IMG/VR virus record: IMGVR_UViG_3300021962_000290 | Location: 1-36,633 of that record | DNA length: 36,633 bases | Strand: one strand, 5' to 3' | From: a virus | Lineage: Duplodnaviria; Caudoviricetes | Made by a program: the position numbers and the translations under genes | Notes under the pieces: generated by a model | Told to the model about the DNA's origin: nothing | Database searches by the model: none | The model's input: only the letters and a program-made list of their open reading frames with translations | Shown: positions 2,533 to 28,442 of the stretch, in pieces | Position numbering within the stretch: position 1 is the first letter of the stretch | How the letters are laid out: every line of letters starts with the position of its first letter

Positions 2533-3405
2533 TTAGAATGTGATTGAACCAGATGCGGTCCATCTGTAAATGCGGAATCCACCAGACACCGTGACGGTCG
2601 GTGAACCAGTCGTGGATACGGCTGCGGCATATAGATCAGGGTAACGGATGATTACGATGCCAGAACCTCCATTGCCGCCTGAATTTCCATAACCACCACC
2701 GCCACCACCACCGCCTGTATTGGCTGTTCCAGCAGTTCCATTAGTAGAACCAGAACCTGCGCCCCCGCCGCCAGCACCTCCAGCACCTCCGGCAGTTTGG
2801 TATCCACCACCACCACCTCCAGCATAAGCTGTGCGAGTTCCAGAAATATCTGATGCAATACCAGCACCTCCACTTCCGTTAACACTTGGCCCTCCGCTTA
2901 AACCAACAGTGCCTGCACCGCCACCGCCTCCACCACCGCTATTTACGCCACCAGAACTAGATGATCCACCACCAGCATTGCCTTGACCAGATGTCCCGGC
3001 AAAACCTGCCGACGAATATCCTGAACCAGACCACACAGCACCTCCTCCTGATCCACCAGAAGAAGTGCCGCCAAGACCACCGCCAAGAGAAACAATATTT
3101 CCAGTTGTTGCTCCAGAAGATGAGGCAATCAATACAGAATTACTACCACTTGAACTATTACCAGAACCACCAGCACCAACAGTAACCCACAATTGAAGTC
3201 CTGCTGTTATTCCAGTAAATCCTGCGCGTAAACCACCTGCTCCACCGCCACCACCATAACCACCGCCAGATGAACCATAACCGCCACCACCTCCAGCAAC
3301 GACTAGGTACTCTACGTTAGGCGTAACTGATCCAGGCCAGTTGCTTTGCTTAACGGCTTGTGACGCTTGTGACAGCGTGAACATCCCGCTGTACTGTGGA
3401 GGCAT
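2533..3405 (-). CDS. Glycine-rich domain virion/tail protein (paralogue 4)
   Basis: VEYLVVAGGGGG ... GGSGIVIIRYP ... WTASGSITF. Confidence 0.85.
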   Translation of the reverse strand: MPPQYSGMFTLSQASQAVKQSNWPGSVTPNVEYLVVAGGGGGYGSSGGGYGGGGGAGGLRAGFTGITAGLQLWVTVGAGGSGNSSSGSNSVLIASSSGATTGNIVSLGGGLGGTSSGGSGGGAVWSGSGYSSAGFAGTSGQGNAGGGSSSSGGVNSGGGGGGGAGTVGLSGGPSVNGSGGAGIASDISGTRTAYAGGGGGGYQTAGGAGGAGGGGAGSGSTNGTAGTANTGGGGGGGGYGNSGGNGGSGIVIIRYPDLYAAAVSTTGSPTVTVSGGFRIYRWTASGSITF

Positions 3406-3407
3406 GA

Positions 3408-3761
3408 TTATTCTCCTGCCTGAACTTCAACCCACGCAGTCGTGGCCTCATCCCACTGATATTGTTTTCCATCAGTAGGCATTGCAGTCGGAGCATTCCA
3501 CAGACAGGTGGACTCATTCAGAACCCAGGACGGATACGGCTTGGGAGGAATGAAAGCGTCACGAACTGAGTCGTAGGTAAAGCCAACACCTGCATAGTTC
3601 TTACGCAGAGGACGACCATCAGGATGCTGGCCTCCGTGAGTGTTGTACGAGGTTTGAATCCACTCTGCCGGGTTACCCCACAGACCAGTGTTCAATGTTT
3701 GTTGGTCGATCACAATGACCTGATCGACGATTCCATTTGTAACGTGAGCGAAATGTGCCAT
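3408..3761 (-). CDS. Tail-associated protein, possible fibre assembly chaperone
   Basis: MAHFAHVTNGIVDQVIV ... LRKNYAGVGFTYD ... YQWDEATTAW; GGAG RBS; lies among fibre genes. Confidence 0.75.
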   Translation of the reverse strand: MAHFAHVTNGIVDQVIVIDQQTLNTGLWGNPAEWIQTSYNTHGGQHPDGRPLRKNYAGVGFTYDSVRDAFIPPKPYPSWVLNESTCLWNAPTAMPTDGKQYQWDEATTAWVEVQAGE

Positions 3762-3770
3762 GTTGACTCC

Positions 3771-4652
3771 TTAGAAAGTGATAGAACCAGATGAGGTCCA
3801 GGTGTAGATTTGATACCCGCCAGCATAGCTGACTTGAGGGCTTCCAGTGGTTGCTGTTGGAGGGCTTGCAGTTGCAGGATAGCGGATGATTACGATGCCT
3901 GAACCGCCTGATCCCCCTGCGCCTGCACTTGCGCCGCCAGCGCCAGCGACTCCGCCACCGCCGGATCCTGTATTTGCTATTGCTGGACTACCGCTTAAAG
4001 TACCAGTGGTTCCTCCACTGCCATTGCCCCCACCAGCGACTCCTAACCCACCAATTGTTGCTCCAGATGCATAATATCCGCCTCCACCGCCTCCGGCATA
4101 TTGGATAGGACTTCCAGAGATTGTTGAATTTATCCCCGCCCCGCCATTTCCTGCGCCATTTGCACTTCCGTTAGTTCCAACAGAGCCTGCGCCACCCCCG
4201 CCTCCGCCGCCAAAAAGCGTACTGCCATTGCCTCCGCCAGAACCTCCGGCATTTCCTTGACCAGATGTTCCTGAACCGCCGGAAGCCGACCCAACACTAT
4301 TTCCCCCGCCTCCAGATCCACCAGATTGGCCAGTAGTCGCACCCGCTCCGCCCCCACCTGTAGCCGTTATTGAACTGAATACCGAGTTTGAACCACTTGT
4401 TGCCGCAGCAGCACTTCCTACCGCACTTCCAGCACCTCCGGCACCAACAGTTACTGTCAGCGCAGAACCAGAAGCTACAGCAAACGCAGCGGCTTGAAGA
4501 ACACCTCCTGCTCCCCCTCCACCGCCAGGTCCACCAGATGATCCTTGGTTTCCGCCACCACCCCCGGCGACAACAAGATACTCCACCGTAGCTGGAGCAC
4601 CAGCTAAGGGGTTAAAGGTTGCAGAGATCACGCCACCAAGTCTGTCACTCAT
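3771..4652 (-). CDS. Glycine-rich domain virion/tail protein (paralogue 3)
   Basis: Same motif set as 2533..3405. Confidence 0.85.
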   Translation of the reverse strand: MSDRLGGVISATFNPLAGAPATVEYLVVAGGGGGNQGSSGGPGGGGGAGGVLQAAAFAVASGSALTVTVGAGGAGSAVGSAAAATSGSNSVFSSITATGGGGAGATTGQSGGSGGGGNSVGSASGGSGTSGQGNAGGSGGGNGSTLFGGGGGGGAGSVGTNGSANGAGNGGAGINSTISGSPIQYAGGGGGGYYASGATIGGLGVAGGGNGSGGTTGTLSGSPAIANTGSGGGGVAGAGGASAGAGGSGGSGIVIIRYPATASPPTATTGSPQVSYAGGYQIYTWTSSGSITF

Positions 4653-4661
4653 ATTAAATCC

Positions 4662-6221
4662 TTAGAACGTGATTGATCCGCTAGATGTCCAGGTATACAC
4701 CCGGTTCTTGTAGCCAAGACCTGTCGAGAATGGGGATAGTTGGTTCCATGCAGGAGTTCCAGTCACAGAACTTATTGCGTAACTGTTGGTTGAACTGTCT
4801 GCAAGGAATGATCCAGAAACTGCGTTCAGCAGCAAAGAGGTTTGATTTCCAGTAATTGCAGAGATGTTTGTACCAGCAGCTTGAGTAGCTTGCAAAGGAG
4901 CCGTGGGTGCAGTAAAGTTTCCTGTGTAAACACACACACCTTTTGTTACACGCAAATTGCTCATGTAAAAAGCCCCAGTAGAACCTGGACTACTGCCATT
5001 ACCACCAACAGTTGGCCTACCAGACCCAACAAGATAGTTGTTTGAATCAGTATATGTGCTACCTGCTTGAGTACCATTGATATACATCTTTGTGCTTGTA
5101 CCTGTACGACAAACTGCAATGTGATACCAAGTTGAAGTATTCAATACATTTCCAGTAATTGCATCGGCAGAGTTTGTAAAGAAAAAAATTCTTCCAGTGC
5201 TTAAACAATATACTGTTGGATAAATTCCGTTTGTTGCATTTGGACGACAATCAAACAAAATAGGACCACCACCAAAAGAGGTGGCATAAATCCAAAATTC
5301 GATTGTGAAATCACCAGTACCAAAAGCAAAAGGAGTTTGAGCGTTGTAACTGAAATACGACGATCCATTAAAATACACGCTCCCAGACCCGCTTGTGCTT
5401 ACAGTCGGTGAACCTGTCGTAGATGTTGCGGCAGCATAGGTGTCTGGGTAAGAGATGATGACAATGCCAGAGCCTCCAGCACCACCTGCATAATGACTTG
5501 CGGCATATCCAGAACCGCCACCGCCGCCACCAGTATTAACTGAACCTGAAGTTGCCGTGGCTCCAACAGAACCTGCACCGCCTCCTCCCGCACCTCCTGC
5601 TCCAGCAGTTCCAGAAGAATAAACCCCTCCGCCGCCACCGCCCGAATAGGTCGTTCGTGTACCAGAGATGTCGGAGGCAATTCCAGCTCCTCCGTTACCT
5701 GCAACAGTGGTAGATGTGGCATTTAAACCTACCGTACCTGCGCCACCACCACCGCCGTTTGGAATGTTTAAAGCTGTTCCATATGCGTTTCCACCAACAT
5801 TTCCTTGTCCAAAAGTTCCTTGTCCCCCTAAAAGAGTTGAACTGCTAACAGAAGACCCTCCACCGCCAGAACCACCCGAAGCACCTGCATTATTTGCAGA
5901 ACCATATCCACCACCTAAAGAAGTTACAGAACCAAATACAGAATTATTTCCATTTGTCTGTGCAGAAGTTGAACTTGCAGAACCAGCAGTTCCACCAGAA
6001 CCAACAGTAACAGTAATAGCCGATCCAGCTACAACAGGAATGTTTCCCTGAAGAAATCCACCGGCTCCGCCGCCTGAACCGGACCCATTGGTATAAGACC
6101 CGCCACCGCCGCCACCTCCAGCGACAACAAGGTAGTTAACAGCAGGAGTCTTCTGACCAGTCCATGCTCTTTGCTGAATCGCACTAAGATGCTGCTTTAG
6201 ATTGAATAGTCCGTTAGGCAT
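4662..6221 (-). CDS. Glycine-rich domain protein with inserted LamG/concanavalin A-like lectin domain (paralogue 2)
   Basis: Gly-rich core plus GTGDFTIEFWIY, WYHIAVCR, MYING and YMSNLRVTKG motifs. Confidence 0.85.
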   Translation of the reverse strand: MPNGLFNLKQHLSAIQQRAWTGQKTPAVNYLVVAGGGGGGGSYTNGSGSGGGAGGFLQGNIPVVAGSAITVTVGSGGTAGSASSTSAQTNGNNSVFGSVTSLGGGYGSANNAGASGGSGGGGSSVSSSTLLGGQGTFGQGNVGGNAYGTALNIPNGGGGGAGTVGLNATSTTVAGNGGAGIASDISGTRTTYSGGGGGGVYSSGTAGAGGAGGGGAGSVGATATSGSVNTGGGGGGSGYAASHYAGGAGGSGIVIISYPDTYAAATSTTGSPTVSTSGSGSVYFNGSSYFSYNAQTPFAFGTGDFTIEFWIYATSFGGGPILFDCRPNATNGIYPTVYCLSTGRIFFFTNSADAITGNVLNTSTWYHIAVCRTGTSTKMYINGTQAGSTYTDSNNYLVGSGRPTVGGNGSSPGSTGAFYMSNLRVTKGVCVYTGNFTAPTAPLQATQAAGTNISAITGNQTSLLLNAVSGSFLADSSTNSYAISSVTGTPAWNQLSPFSTGLGYKNRVYTWTSSGSITF

Positions 6222-6229
6222 ACGTCACC

Positions 6230-7084
6230 TTAGAATGTGATTGATCCAGAACTCGTGAATACATACACGCGGTGTTGACCAGCAATGTATGTTCGTGGAG
6301 AACCTGTCGTGGATGATGCTGGTGCAAGATATGCTGGATAGCGAAGCACTACGATGCCAGAGCCGCCTGCTGCTCCTGGTTGAGATGTAGATGCTGTTAA
6401 ACCAGCACCAGCTCCGCCACCGCCACCAGTGTTTGCAAAACCTGTTGTAGCAGAAATGATTGCAGTTGAAAAACCAGCGCCACCGTTACCACCACCACCT
6501 GCACCATAGGAAACAAAATAACCAGCGCCTCCACCACCACCAGCATACTGGATTTGACTTCCTGTTATGGAAGAAACAACACCTGCTCCACCTGCTCCAC
6601 CTGCAACACTTGCCGCAATTGAAGCAACTCCAGCACTTCCTGCACCACCCCCACCGCCACCACCATAACCGCCTGCTGCCGTAGCACCACCAGCATTGCC
6701 TTGACCAGATGTTCCTGTGCCTGAAGATGCGCCGCCAGAACCTCCGGTTCCGCCAGTACCAGTGGAGTAATTACCATAACCACCACCAGTTGCAGTAATA
6801 CTTCCAAATACAGAATTTGAACCTGCTGTACCAGCACTACTGGCAGACGCACCACCAGCACCACCAGCGCCAACAGTAACTGTAATTGATGAACCTTGAG
6901 TTACCGCATAACCAAATGCAGTCAATAAACCGCCCGCTCCTCCTCCGCCACCAGAGTTACTGTTTGCATTAGCACTTGCGCCACCCCCTCCACCAGCGAC
7001 GACTAGATATTCGACCTGCGTGACAGGATTGCTGATTCCATCGAAACCAGCATTCTTAATTCCACCAGGATATTTCAAGGACAT
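6230..7084 (-). CDS. Glycine-rich domain virion/tail protein (paralogue 1)
   Basis: Same motif set; GGAGG RBS. Confidence 0.85.
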   Translation of the reverse strand: MSLKYPGGIKNAGFDGISNPVTQVEYLVVAGGGGGASANANSNSGGGGGAGGLLTAFGYAVTQGSSITVTVGAGGAGGASASSAGTAGSNSVFGSITATGGGYGNYSTGTGGTGGSGGASSGTGTSGQGNAGGATAAGGYGGGGGGGAGSAGVASIAASVAGGAGGAGVVSSITGSQIQYAGGGGGAGYFVSYGAGGGGNGGAGFSTAIISATTGFANTGGGGGAGAGLTASTSQPGAAGGSGIVVLRYPAYLAPASSTTGSPRTYIAGQHRVYVFTSSGSITF

Positions 7085-18381: not shown

Positions 18382-19224
18382 TTATTCGCGGCAGGTAATG
18401 GCAACAATACCACCAGCGTCGATAGCGATAGCGCCAGCGGAGAACATCGAGGCAACCAACCACGAGGTCTTCTCGGGGATGTAGTTGATCTCGCTACGCA
18501 CAGCCATTGCTTCAGCCATACCGACAGACATCTTGTGGTAAGCGTAGACGGTACGGTCAGAACCAGAGCCGCCGCCAGTCAAACCACCTTCAGTGCGGTC
18601 ACCAATCACGTTGAACGTAAAGCCCATGAACGTGTTGATCTCGCCCTGCACCAGAGCCTTCACGCTGTTGAAGTCGCTGGAGGTCACTTGCGTTTCCGAC
18701 AGCAGGTTCGACAGTTGCGAAGCGTGCATGACAATGTAGCGCTCTTCCATCGGCACGTTGTTAGCGTTCATCAAACGCTGTGCTTCACGGAGTTTAGCCA
18801 TGTTCATGTTGGTCGTAGCACCACCAATGCTGTTAGCCACGGTCAGGGACGTACCCGAACCAGCCAGAGCATCAATGATCATTTGATCGCTACGACGACC
18901 AATAGCCTTGGCAACCACTTGCACCAGTTCTTGGCGCTCGTCAAAGTTGACTTTGGCTTGGTTGAAAATGTCGCTGTATTCAGCAGCAATGTAGTCCGTG
19001 AGAGTCACGGTTGCTTGCGAATAGGTGACGTTCAGCGGGGTCACATCGGTTTGCGGAACGCGAACCTGGGCAACGCCTGAGCCGATCTTGGGGAACTTGT
19101 GGGTAGACGCAGTAACGCCAGTGCGAAGACGGACAGTGTTACGCAGCACAGCATCAGCTTGATATGCCTGCTTAACTTCCGTATCGAACAGGGTTACAAA
19201 TGCGTTAGAAATGCTAACAGCCAT
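18382..19224 (-). CDS. Major capsid protein
   Basis: AFVTLFDTEVKQAYQ, TSSDFNSVKALVQGEINTFMGFTF; AGGAG RBS. Confidence 0.9.
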   Translation of the reverse strand: MAVSISNAFVTLFDTEVKQAYQADAVLRNTVRLRTGVTASTHKFPKIGSGVAQVRVPQTDVTPLNVTYSQATVTLTDYIAAEYSDIFNQAKVNFDERQELVQVVAKAIGRRSDQMIIDALAGSGTSLTVANSIGGATTNMNMAKLREAQRLMNANNVPMEERYIVMHASQLSNLLSETQVTSSDFNSVKALVQGEINTFMGFTFNVIGDRTEGGLTGGGSGSDRTVYAYHKMSVGMAEAMAVRSEINYIPEKTSWLVASMFSAGAIAIDAGGIVAITCRE

Positions 19225-19362
19225 TTGTTTTCTCCTGAAAACGGTTGATAAAGAGTTTTATCGCCGCTGGTTATCCAGATCGCTCCGGGCCGTGACTTGT
19301 GCCTTACAGCGCACCCCTGGGCTGATCACAGCCATCATGGGCCTTTCGGTTGTCCATGGCCC
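19225..19362 (-). promoter_or_regulatory. Structured 5' leader of the capsid gene
   Basis: Tandem hairpins GGGCC/GGCCC, GCTG-TGAT-CAGC, GTGC/GCAC, CTGG-ATAA-CCAG, GATAAA-ACTC-TTTATC. Confidence 0.55.
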
Positions 19363-19363
19363 G

Positions 19364-19390
19364 ATTATAAGCATTTTGTGTACTTGTCAA
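19364..19390 (-). promoter_or_regulatory. Sigma70-type promoter for capsid genes (short spacer)
   Basis: TTGACA-N15-TATAAT with an A-tract upstream. Confidence 0.6.
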
Positions 19391-19407
19391 GCATTTTTTT
19401 TAACATA

Positions 19408-19650
19408 AGTTCCCCAAGGGTGGATAGCCTGGTATCCATTCCCTCTCCCGCAGGGACTATCTCGTAGTCCAGCCAGAGTACCCATGAGGCAGCGATTCAT
19501 CCAGTATGGCGCTTGTCCCACCGCTTTCACCATACCTACCCTAGTCCCTCGCTGACAGGCTAGTCGGAATACTTGGGGGTGTACCAAGTCCGGTGTTTCT
19601 CGGGTTCAGTCCATGCAGACCATCAGCTAACGCGCCCTGACGGTTGTCTA
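19408..19650 (-). ncRNA. Putative structured RNA domain, ~240 nt, pseudoknotted
   Basis: At least six hand-found helices plus a loop CAGCGA/TCGCTG pairing; no credible ORF. Confidence 0.6.
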
Positions 19651-19662
19651 AACTGCTTTGAA

Positions 19663-19823
19663 TTGACCCCTAGACCGCCTCCCTCATTCGGTCACATTTC
19701 GCCTGGTATACGTTCAGGTTAGAGGTACGTTACTTGGTCACTACTTGGGGTTGGCCTCTCCAACTCGAATGCCCTAAGTCACTGTATGCCTACAGTGCTG
19801 TTCATGATTGCTAACAGGGTCAA
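19663..19823 (-). ncRNA. Putative closed multi-stem RNA domain, ~160 nt
   Basis: Closing stem TTGACCC/GGGTCAA, GNRA hairpin CACTGTA-GGCA-TACAGTG, two candidate pseudoknots. Confidence 0.6.
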
Positions 19824-19842
19824 ATCAAAACAGTCTGCATAA

Positions 19843-19940
19843 ACAAAAAAGCCACTTACTACTGCATCCGGGTTGCACCCCCAGTGACCTGGGGCCAGAC
19901 GCATGAGTAAGCGGCTTCATCTGTTGTGTGCAACGACAAC
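19843..19940 (-). ncRNA. C4-antisense-like RNA with upstream complementary target hairpin
   Basis: Long stem AAGCCGCTTACT/AGTAAGTGGCTT plus U-tract; single-stranded GTGCAAC complementary to GTTGCAC in the upstream loop. Confidence 0.6.
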
Positions 19941-19947
19941 GGTTGTG

Positions 19948-19975
19948 ATTATGCCAAAAAAAAGACCCCTGTCAA
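19948..19975 (-). promoter_or_regulatory. Sigma70-type promoter for the RNA cassette
   Basis: TTGACA-N16-CATAAT with TG extended -10. Confidence 0.65.
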
Positions 19976-19984
19976 GCAGGGGTC
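19956..19984 (-). terminator. Intrinsic terminator after scaffold gene
   Basis: GACCCCTG-CTTGA-CAGGGGTC followed by T8. Confidence 0.8.
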
Positions 19985-20005: not shown

Positions 20006-20785
20006 TTACCTAGCAGGACCAGGATACATCTTCTCATAGAGCTTTTCAACCTTGGCACGATAGGCAGGATTTGAATAGTATTCAGGTGTTCCAACCATTG
20101 CGTCCAATTCTTCCTTGGATACGCTGCCTTCAGTGTCGGATTTGAGCGTTTCCACAGGAACCCTGCCCTCATAGGTCTGGCGCAGCTTAGAAAGGGCTTT
20201 GATGCCCTTGGCGGTGTCACCCCACTTGGTGAACTCCTGGAACTCCTCCTGGCTCCAGATGCCCTTCTGGACCATGCCACGACCCCAGGTAGCCATGTCA
20301 GCAATCACAGCCTTGGCGTTTGGCCCCAAAGCCTCCAGTTCTGCTTGCATATTGATCTGGGCAGACTCCATGTTTCGTCCGCCGATCTCGTTGACACTAC
20401 GAGCCAGTTCCTCAAAGGCAGACTGAGAGATACCGTACTTCTGTGCCCAACCCACATAAGCACTGACCACCGGGTCATCTGCTTTGAGATTAAGACTTTC
20501 TAACTCATATTTGCCATCTTCAGGGGGTTTATGGCCTCCTGCTCGGAACTTCTTTTCAAGTTCTACATAAGACTTGCTGATTCCCTCCAGATCAGGCTCT
20601 GCGCTCTCTTTGTTCCAGAACTTCTCAGGCCAGAAATCGGGGCGCTCTAGGGGGCCATCATCAGCATTAGGATCAGGATTGGTGTGACTGATGCTTTGCT
20701 CATGGCCCTCGGTTGTCTGCCCTTCTGCATCGCCTTCAGCGGCGGCTGCTTCCAGCAGGCCAGGGTTGTCATTTGCTTCGCTCAT
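20006..20785 (-). CDS. Capsid scaffolding protein
   Basis: Acidic; RPDFWPEKFW, SYVELEKK, C-terminal YYSNPAYRAKVEK. Confidence 0.8.
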   Translation of the reverse strand: MSEANDNPGLLEAAAAEGDAEGQTTEGHEQSISHTNPDPNADDGPLERPDFWPEKFWNKESAEPDLEGISKSYVELEKKFRAGGHKPPEDGKYELESLNLKADDPVVSAYVGWAQKYGISQSAFEELARSVNEIGGRNMESAQINMQAELEALGPNAKAVIADMATWGRGMVQKGIWSQEEFQEFTKWGDTAKGIKALSKLRQTYEGRVPVETLKSDTEGSVSKEELDAMVGTPEYYSNPAYRAKVEKLYEKMYPGPAR

Positions 20786-27261: not shown

Positions 27262-27516
27262 CCATAGTTCGCCTAAACGCCTCGTGTGCCAGCAAGCTAC
27301 CAGGCTGATTTTGAGAAAAAAATTGCGAGGTGTACCCCCATCGCTAGGTGTGGGGTAGGGGGGGCAAGGTGTCTCGTTTGTAGCGCGATGGTTCTAACAT
27401 CTGCTGCAACACTACCTGCCAGCAATCCTGCAAATACCTACCCTACCGCATCGAACACGATATCCATTATGTTAAGTTACGCCAGACGGTAGCCTGAAAG
27501 TACCAAGATGCTGGCA

Positions 27517-28164
27517 TCAACGTAGCATTCTGTCTAACATCTGCTCAAGTTGCTCGATTGTGTACTTAGGTTCTAAACGAGAGATGGCGAGATCGACTAG
27601 TTCGCTTCCAACTGCTCGCCTGAGAGTATCAATCCTATCTATACTTTGCTGCTGATAGTCAAAATCTAGATTGCTTGCCCGATTGTCGTCAACTACTGGT
27701 TTAGATGACAATTTGCGTTTTTTCATAGTCTGGCCTTTAGGTTGTTGATTTAATTGGGTTTTTTGCTGCTGCTCTATCATGTAGGGCGCTGGTTCTTGCG
27801 TGACAGCGACAATGTCAGACACTGGCAGATCGTTGAATATCACTTGTCTGGTTTGCGCTCGCTCGCCTGGGAAACCTTTATACAAAACCCTCAGATAACC
27901 CTTGCGCGTTAGCCCCTGGGTTAGTCTGGTCATCCTGCTGATACTGATTCCCAGGTGATCGCCCACCCGCTTCATTCCCACCCATGTCAGACCGGATCGA
28001 TTCGTATAAGAGCATAGAACCATTAAAACCCGTAGTTCCATCGGTGTCAGTGTTCTATCGGTAGCTGCGCGGATCGGCACAATGGTTACTGTCCGCTGGT
28101 CTGGCTGCTGCTCTTTCGGTCGAATCCTGGGTTTTTTTGGCAGTGTTATCGGGACTGGTTCCAT
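27517..28164 (-). CDS. Winged-helix replication initiator-like protein
   Basis: LTPMELRVLMVLCSY...W...VGDHLGIS...LTRKGYL; start probably 28164 or 28176, downstream of a terminator. Confidence 0.7.
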   Translation of the reverse strand: MEPVPITLPKKPRIRPKEQQPDQRTVTIVPIRAATDRTLTPMELRVLMVLCSYTNRSGLTWVGMKRVGDHLGISISRMTRLTQGLTRKGYLRVLYKGFPGERAQTRQVIFNDLPVSDIVAVTQEPAPYMIEQQQKTQLNQQPKGQTMKKRKLSSKPVVDDNRASNLDFDYQQQSIDRIDTLRRAVGSELVDLAISRLEPKYTIEQLEQMLDRMLR

Positions 28165-28182
28165 AATGCGCGGCATTGTGCC

Positions 28183-28209
28183 AAAAAAAAGCCACCTACG
28201 ATAGGTGGC
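28183..28209 (-). terminator. Intrinsic terminator
   Basis: GCCACCTA-TCG-TAGGTGGC followed by T8. Confidence 0.8.
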
Positions 28210-28229
28210 CTTCAATGAATCAATTAGTT

Positions 28230-28442
28230 CTAATACCTTACCGCGCCCTGATTCGATAGCCTTTGCGCTGTCTTGATCCGTCTTACCGCGGCGCTCACGG
28301 TGGATTGAGCGCATCCTAGTTCGCTAGCTGCCTGGGTTTGCGTCCTACCCTTAACTAACACCAGTAACGCGCCCCGATGGGCTTTCCCGCCCATCTTAAG
28401 ACGCGCCAGGGCTTGCAATGCATAGAATTGATCAATTGTCAT
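28230..28442 (-). CDS. TrfB/KorA-like HTH regulator
   Basis: QF...LVLVKGRTQTQAASELGCAQSTVSAAVRRI resembles the IncP KorA N-domain. Confidence 0.65.
   Translation of the reverse strand: MTIDQFYALQALARLKMGGKAHRGALLVLVKGRTQTQAASELGCAQSTVSAAVRRIKTAQRLSNQGAVRY

Follow-up and report, generated by a model that had tools for sequence, protein, structure and literature searches.

What lies between the scaffold and capsid genes of this phage, and what might it be for? The window that we analysed, the whole 36.6-kb virus record IMGVR_UViG_3300021962_000290 (36,633 nucleotides), encodes a T7-like virion module, a terminase, RecE/Erf recombination genes, RusA and an HTH_36 initiator (27517-28314; PHROG and Pfam matches), and its GC skew is monotonic and hence uninformative. 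On the minus strand, the capsid scaffold gene (20006..20785; Pfam PF05396, E 8.5e-31) lies upstream and the major capsid protein gene (18382..19224; phrog_3437, E 5e-60) downstream of a gap of 781 bp. A preliminary description of this DNA gave the spacing as about 780 bp, which is correct, and held that these genes are normally nearly adjacent, which is not: we surveyed 80 capsid relatives, 71 of which also had a scaffold gene, and the gap measured 154-313 bp in 52 of the 71 and 571-978 bp in 19.

The long gaps hold different elements. The cassette described here, whose core we call family A, is found in 12 of them, and a second element behind the same kind of leader in five; the long gap of L019 holds an HTH_36 ORF (an initiator half) with internal direct repeats, and that of L038 an HNH ORF. 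The scaffold-capsid gap is therefore a slot with exchangeable contents.

The cassette is non-coding and modular

We asked whether the cassette encodes an RNA or a protein. Its 551-nt minus strand folds at z = -2.9 and none of 100 shuffles was equally stable, which bears out the proposal of a structured RNA region. Rfam held no match to the window at the gathering level; at E<=10 there were only sub-cut-off matches, all of terminator type or due to chance, and the covariance models of large RNAs and ribozymes (GOLLD, ROOL, introns, self-cleaving RNAs) found none. The claim that no credible protein is encoded also held. A protein-coding reading is ruled out by the absence of a conserved frame among 63 core homologues and of any PHROG or Pfam match, including for a 66-aa ORF at 19387-19587; in any single frame at most 7 of the 63 homologues are stop-free, and their lengths modulo 3 are distributed 25/21/17. 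A tRNA or tmRNA was sought as well, and none was found.

The cassette had been described as one self-contained RNA of about 550 nt, and this did not survive comparison with other carriers, where the middle domain is missing or replaced; that domain also occurs in a tRNA array. We found instead that the cassette is an optional, three-part element in which a leader, a passenger RNA and a core of ~240 nt are separable modules. What remains of the undescribed, regulated large RNA that was proposed is an element that is real, uncatalogued, promoter-led, structured and pseudoknotted, but not a single 550-nt unit. The literature that we searched, with most subscription papers outside it, holds no description of this element.

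The passenger (19650..19836, minus strand) has a core of ~160 nt inside a closing stem and belongs to a separate uncatalogued family. In other carriers it is absent, or unrelated stem-closed inserts take its place. Homologues were found in three viral (lambdoid) contigs and within a tRNA array of Klebsiella phage MY01, and 17 of its 52 predicted pairs show double changes, a count from only five sequences; it is probably a real, separate RNA. The closed domain of ~160 nt is thus structured, as had been noticed, but is an independent module rather than an integral part of one RNA. At least four other unrelated stem-closed inserts occur between leader and core (L001, L027, L091, L113, L131), and one insert in the passenger position has a tRNA-like T loop.

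The core domain is a conserved pseudoknotted element

The core (19393..19643, minus strand), a candidate primer RNA, was recognized from homologues, covariation and a covariance model. Pattern scans and iterated nhmmer searches gave 222 matching loci, 198 of them full length, a total in which many contigs are counted twice; 63 homologues are non-redundant at 92%. A metagenome scan found the whole domain in 78 of the 101 loci with sufficient flank behind the 3' motif. The only match of covariance model R1 in the window is this core, at 229 bits. Genome hits contained the core in 3 of 32 cases (a Betaproteobacteria bin, a Sulfuricella bin and an archaeal bin), too few to assign a host.

The fold consists of a P1/P2 junction, with three tertiary pairs that join the P2 loop to the strand after it, and a P3 with a CACCC loop. 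A kissing loop of 6 bp pairs 19554-19549 with 19495-19490; like the tertiary pairs, it was found by mutual information. A long-range pairing joins a GGTGG loop (19522-19518) to a 3' CCACC (19423-19419), with the family form GGTG(G/A) with (C/T)CACC. Across the alignment, both partners have changed in 42 of 49 pairs, the kissing loop included, and 93.9% of alignment cells pair, a value reached by none of 500 shuffles and compared with 35-45% for slid partners; the counted structure was derived from the same alignment, and the comparison with slid partners is biased in its favour. An independent RNAalifold run gave double changes in 25 of 29 pairs, and three P1 pairs are canonical in all rows after 60 of the 63 were re-anchored. 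The pseudoknotted domain of ~240 nt that had been proposed is accordingly well founded, with 63 non-redundant homologues, strong covariation and a kissing loop. A UUCG tetraloop was dropped as evidence for RNA, its bases being paired to a strand further away.

A promoter and a CI/C4-like attenuator precede the core

The scaffold gene is followed by an intrinsic terminator (19956..19984, minus strand) with an 8-bp stem (hairpin 19984-19964) and a T run, and cassette-free relatives have a similar hairpin and T run. Within it begins a sigma-70-type promoter, TTGACA-16-CATAAT (19948..19975, minus strand), which matches the consensus at 11 of 12 positions and has its predicted +1 near 19941; the overlap of its -35 with the terminator hairpin, pointed out earlier, is plain in the sequence. 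Distinct homologous leaders are preceded by a -10-like hexamer in 42 of 46 cases and by a -35-like hexamer in 31 of 46, counts that carry no shuffle control. Downstream of the cassette and outside it lie the capsid promoter (-35 at 19390-19385, -10 at 19369-19364) and a conserved capsid leader (together 19225..19390, minus strand), which are found in relatives with and without the cassette. The capsid promoter is present as described, with a 15-nt spacer, but is absent from the matches of our promoter scan. The capsid leader (19365-19225, minus strand) contains repeated GAYAACC...GGCCC blocks, kept in relatives with and without the cassette, and had no Rfam match; it may be an RNA that controls translation of the capsid gene.

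The leader of the cassette (19842..19941, minus strand) was identified by its fold and by seed/anti-seed complementarity. A 7-nt seed (19934-19928) lies in the first hairpin and the anti-seed (19878-19872) in the internal loop of a long terminator hairpin, whose arms (19917-19906 and 19860-19849) are followed by a U run. Seed and anti-seed are complementary in 84 loci, with 23 distinct heptamers; 160 loci had 200 nt upstream, and those not among the 84 have another type of leader or were missed by the pattern. Of 50 distinct full leaders, 48 leave the anti-seed unpaired in their predicted folds, and the anti-terminator pairing of seed with anti-seed appears in only 20 of 50 truncated folds, this phage's at 80 nt among them. 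A second leader type stands before the same core in L141, L145, L147, L236, L249 and L224, and had no Rfam match at the gathering level.

The leader shares with P4 CI/seqA and P1-P7 c4 a same-strand position upstream of the gated part, a terminator, and a short, phage-specific complementary pair, with the complementary target upstream on the same transcript and varying between phages. P4 CI is reported to block the P4 replication genes by premature termination via seqA/seqC pairing (PMC4825925). Unlike in those systems, the gated cargo here is RNA rather than protein; no further copy of the seed, of the seqC/a2b2 type, was noticed downstream, and Rfam C4 (RF01695) gave no match to the leader at E<=10. 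The C4-like element of the preliminary description is hence right in its C4/CI anatomy and in gating an RNA without protein cargo, but it is not a member of the Rfam C4 family by match.

Some relatives of the core adjoin initiator halves

We next considered where the core occurs in other phages. Twenty of 62 non-redundant homologues lie in the scaffold-capsid slot, and 42 lie elsewhere or on contigs too short to place. An initiator-motif ORF is found within 1.2 kb in 11 of these 42; 31 have none nearby, some of the loci being short. Other neighbours of the non-scaffold homologues are terminase subunits, ParB-like proteins, helicase and methyltransferases (69 of 148 neighbour ORFs were compared with PHROGs). 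Outside the virion operon the cassette follows cro-like HTH genes with RusA nearby, that is, it occupies the lambdoid replication slot. The adjoining ORFs, of 113-140 aa, match only the C-terminal half of initiators (about 177-265 of phrog_270; about 218-296 of phrog_678). Among 20 such carrier records, phrog_270 was matched in 14 (13 C-terminal only, one N-terminal) and not in six; in the 10 records at least 90% complete, all seven phrog_270 matches were C-terminal only. All 20 downstream domain-motif ORFs at metagenome loci are short at the N end (<=53 aa; one cut), and in one carrier the initiator half lies upstream of the cassette. In lambda O, origin binding resides in the N-terminal half and recruitment of the helicase loader in the C-terminal half. 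By analogy, the same division of labour would apply to these initiator halves.

A reverse search with the C-terminal domain, using a query from the RNA-linked ORFs, covered the best 80 of 519 relatives: 36 were fused to an N-terminal half (all four fused ORFs that were checked are full initiators), 43 stood alone and one was cut. Among these best 80 of 519, 14 of the 43 stand-alone domains but none of the 36 fused ones have family A at a distance of 1.5 kb or less (Fisher p 6.6e-5, ignoring kinship, with stand-alone and fused ORFs mostly in different lineages). Together with three sister families, whose models B, D and E were built from the stand-alone loci themselves, it precedes 38 of the 43 stand-alone halves and 0 of the 36 full-length initiators in the same best 80. 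An element of this kind would not fit in front of fused initiators, since their median gap to the upstream ORF is 0.5 nt, with at least 250 nt in only 2 of 36 of that set.

Each sister element follows a U run like that of the leader. Families B1, B2, D and E (~200-270 nt) lie upstream of a stand-alone initiator domain in L336, L345, L372, L360 and L348; family D has its 5' domain in common with family A and ends 3' in a G5-TA-G6 tract. Families A and B were compared only by eye and with nhmmer. Family B2 (L336, L345), which has the same leaders and the same slot, matches the Betaproteobacteria-1 RNA (RF02932) above the cut-off over 120 nt only, and RF02932 had 0 matches in the genome studied here. 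Plasmid searches with families A, B2, D and E found no carrier.

The podophage group to which this phage belongs shows no anti-correlation between cassette and initiator. Its 26 records gave 16 phrog_270 matches, all N-terminal, whether or not the cassette is present. Because an HTH initiator is found in all 12 near-complete podophages, with or without the cassette, nothing in this phage needs the cassette.

The 3' end of the core resembles the ColE1 origin region

The core ends in a conserved 3' terminal motif and an A run (19394..19422, minus strand), a predicted RNA-to-DNA switch region defined by a terminal profile. In the whole ColE1 plasmid, the best site of the terminal-block profile is at 1182 (GGAGCCTATGGAAAAA, 16.2 bits). 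A 16-nt terminal profile made from 49 ends that were found without the motif ranks the same position first of 13,262 sites, with 15.7 bits against 9.2 for the next site; the chance expectation of a 15.7-bit site anywhere in ColE1 is about 0.25, and the likeness was first spotted by eye. We take site 1182, about 550 bp beyond the RNA II promoter, to be the origin, and on that placement the terminal motif falls, as in ColE1, at the pre-primer 3' end after a G-rich tract. The G-rich stretch upstream of the 1182 region in ColE1 is described as essential (PMC6317783). Both systems have a promoter-driven non-coding transcript, no Rep protein, and a 3' end made up of a G tract, GGA(A/G)CCTATG and an A run, which in this phage may partly be the upstream element of the capsid promoter. 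The distance from promoter to motif is ~540 nt here and 550 bp from promoter to origin in ColE1 (PMC5043065), a match that may be due to chance because most homologues are shorter.

The core differs from RNA II in its fold, with a kissing loop; in its control, which is exerted in ColE1 by a convergent RNA I and here by a same-strand attenuator; and in being found in phages, adjoining the C-terminal half of an initiator, whereas the known ColE1 replicons have been described as gamma-proteobacterial plasmids (PMC8683028). The whole element had no nhmmer match to ColE1, its profile alignments to ColE1 scored below 12, 2 and 9 of 40 shuffled controls, and the covariance model gave a non-significant E of 0.45-0.92 at the origin end. 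The plasmids pB1005 and pAsa1 gave no match. A search for a plus-strand promoter of the RNA I type had no match within 19400-19984, Rfam gave no RNAI match, and the plus strand has one hairpin, at 19921-19942. Because the whole-element tests were negative, we read the element as probably working like RNA II without classing it among ColE1 replicons. In one variant of family A (L138 1548-1530, minus strand) the 5' end is identical over 19 nt to ColE1 downstream of rop; the ColE1 site lies downstream of the origin on the opposite strand, presumably next to a primosome assembly site, and the database E for this short query is 7.

RNA-primed origins are already known from ColE1-type plasmids, MRB plasmids and a few mycobacterial prophages. 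The MRB plasmids of Vibrionaceae form a second RNA I/RNA II family (PMC3035462), and prophages of cluster A mycobacteriophages have RNA-based origins, a precedent for RNA-only initiation in phages (PMC7157519). Both belong to other hosts and are plasmid-borne or parABS-linked; we set them apart by their descriptions only.

The cassette as a probable replication origin

An RNA that starts DNA replication is likely because in other phages the element sits where the DNA-binding half of the initiator is missing. We consider the cassette to be, probably, an RNA-primed (transcription-primed) replication origin with copy control by attenuation rather than by RNA I. Of the four functions offered in the preliminary description, the replication primer agrees with the slot, with the exclusion of intact initiators and with a 3' end like that of the ColE1 origin; packaging is less likely, as most relatives lack the cassette and other phages carry it far from their virion genes. 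We are more confident that the cassette is a replication origin of some kind, whether an RNA primer or a single-stranded DNA signal is at work.

The latter, on its own, seems improbable to us: transcription would expose the non-template strand, which as folded single-stranded DNA would form a priming or helicase-loading signal. The displaced strand does have the sequence of the RNA, and RNA and single-stranded DNA motifs are hard to separate computationally (PMC5737381). The small P1 loop is mostly GTTA or GATA, not GNRA, and the 19-nt identity of one 5' variant is with the opposite strand of ColE1 (E = 7). Against these points stand three elements that are pseudoknotted or tertiary, with almost all their bases paired and G-U pairs frequent, and a covarying pair that closes a 6-nt loop rather than a tetraloop. 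Such pseudoknotted and tertiary elements and abundant G-U pairs are more typical of RNA.

It is also unlikely, in our estimate, that the core is a regulatory RNA and no origin. As a cis leader of downstream replication genes it would use the terminal GGGG-N5-ATG as a ribosome-binding site; as a trans RNA it would bind the stand-alone initiator domain or a host protein. CI/C4-type leaders do gate downstream genes (PMC4825925), and the terminal ATG opens an ORF of at least 50 aa in 10 of 62 homologues, an initiator half in a few of them. However, when the 20 scaffold-capsid homologues have the ATG, no more than 3-6 codons follow from it, with one exception, and a separate promoter lies after the core; at several ends GTG, TTG or nothing resembling a start triplet takes its place, and the carrier with its initiator half upstream of the cassette does not suit a leader. 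A selfish mobile RNA or ribozyme, spread between phages with HNH help and residing in replication regions without an origin role, would account for the patchy occurrence among close relatives (family A in this gap in 12 of 71), the HNH ORFs in the slot of L016, L034 and L038, and tertiary contacts like those of catalytic RNAs. We regard it as very improbable: no Rfam ribozyme or intron matches, no gene is interrupted, HNH genes follow only a minority of the elements, and such a module is not expected to track loss of the initiator N-terminal half.

Proposed mechanism and transcription

If the cassette is an RNA-primed origin, transcription would begin near 19941 at the cassette promoter. Most transcripts would end at the leader terminator, and their exposed anti-seeds would pair in trans with nascent seeds and so sustain termination, giving a phage-specific copy control through a 7-nt code, like that of P4 CI/seqA. 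Read-through RNA would fold the core, whose GGTGG loop would capture the nascent 3' CCACC. The G loop of RNA II pairs with its template. Here the P3 CACCC loop, which shows no informative variation, might be freed to do likewise. An R-loop would then persist over the G tract, terminal motif and A run, and the primer would be produced and elongated by host RNase H and Pol I. Helicase loading in lambdoid carriers would fall to the stand-alone C-terminal domain. Since this podophage keeps its HTH initiator, the cassette would here add a second, optional origin or be one that hitch-hikes, with the 160-nt domain as its passenger.

Contigs of relatives from sequencing runs are compatible both with transcription of the cassette and with its absence. 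Related contigs came from 24 runs, all with small shares, and contigs of relatives were examined from eight. In four runs coverage extends from the capsid gene through its leader to about 19400, with little of the cassette included; a 198-nt contig from an RNA library contains the 3' half of a relative's core and beyond, and a 1,019-nt contig of a relative extends from promoter to capsid, in a run that we only guess to be RNA.

More broadly, and as a tentative proposal to which we give not quite even weight, a widespread group of at least four RNA families in aquatic phages may have taken the place of the origin-binding half in initiators of the lambda O type, with an attenuator-controlled primer RNA opening the origin and the freed C-terminal domain loading the helicase. 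The module would be mobile into unrelated podophages as a second origin, ancestry shared with ColE1 RNA II would be possible, and Betaproteobacteria-1 RNA would gain a function. If so, RNA would be able to replace half of a protein initiator across many phage lineages, the orphan initiator fragments of phage genomes would be explained, and compatible replicons keyed by a 7-nt code could become possible. It would also provide a tractable model of a nascent transcript capturing its template, a step that PMC5043065 describes as so far speculative in ColE1.

Other features of the window

Four tandem paralogous genes that match phrog_2295 follow the tail fibre gene (2533-7084, minus strand). The HTH initiator is followed by a non-coding stretch (27520-26885, minus strand) with a G/C tract near 27340 and a GGCCCC-closed element near 27165-27065. 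Near 26995-26925 lies a stem-closed carrier unit, seen again in L011 and L414-L416, where it surrounds small RNA-like inserts.
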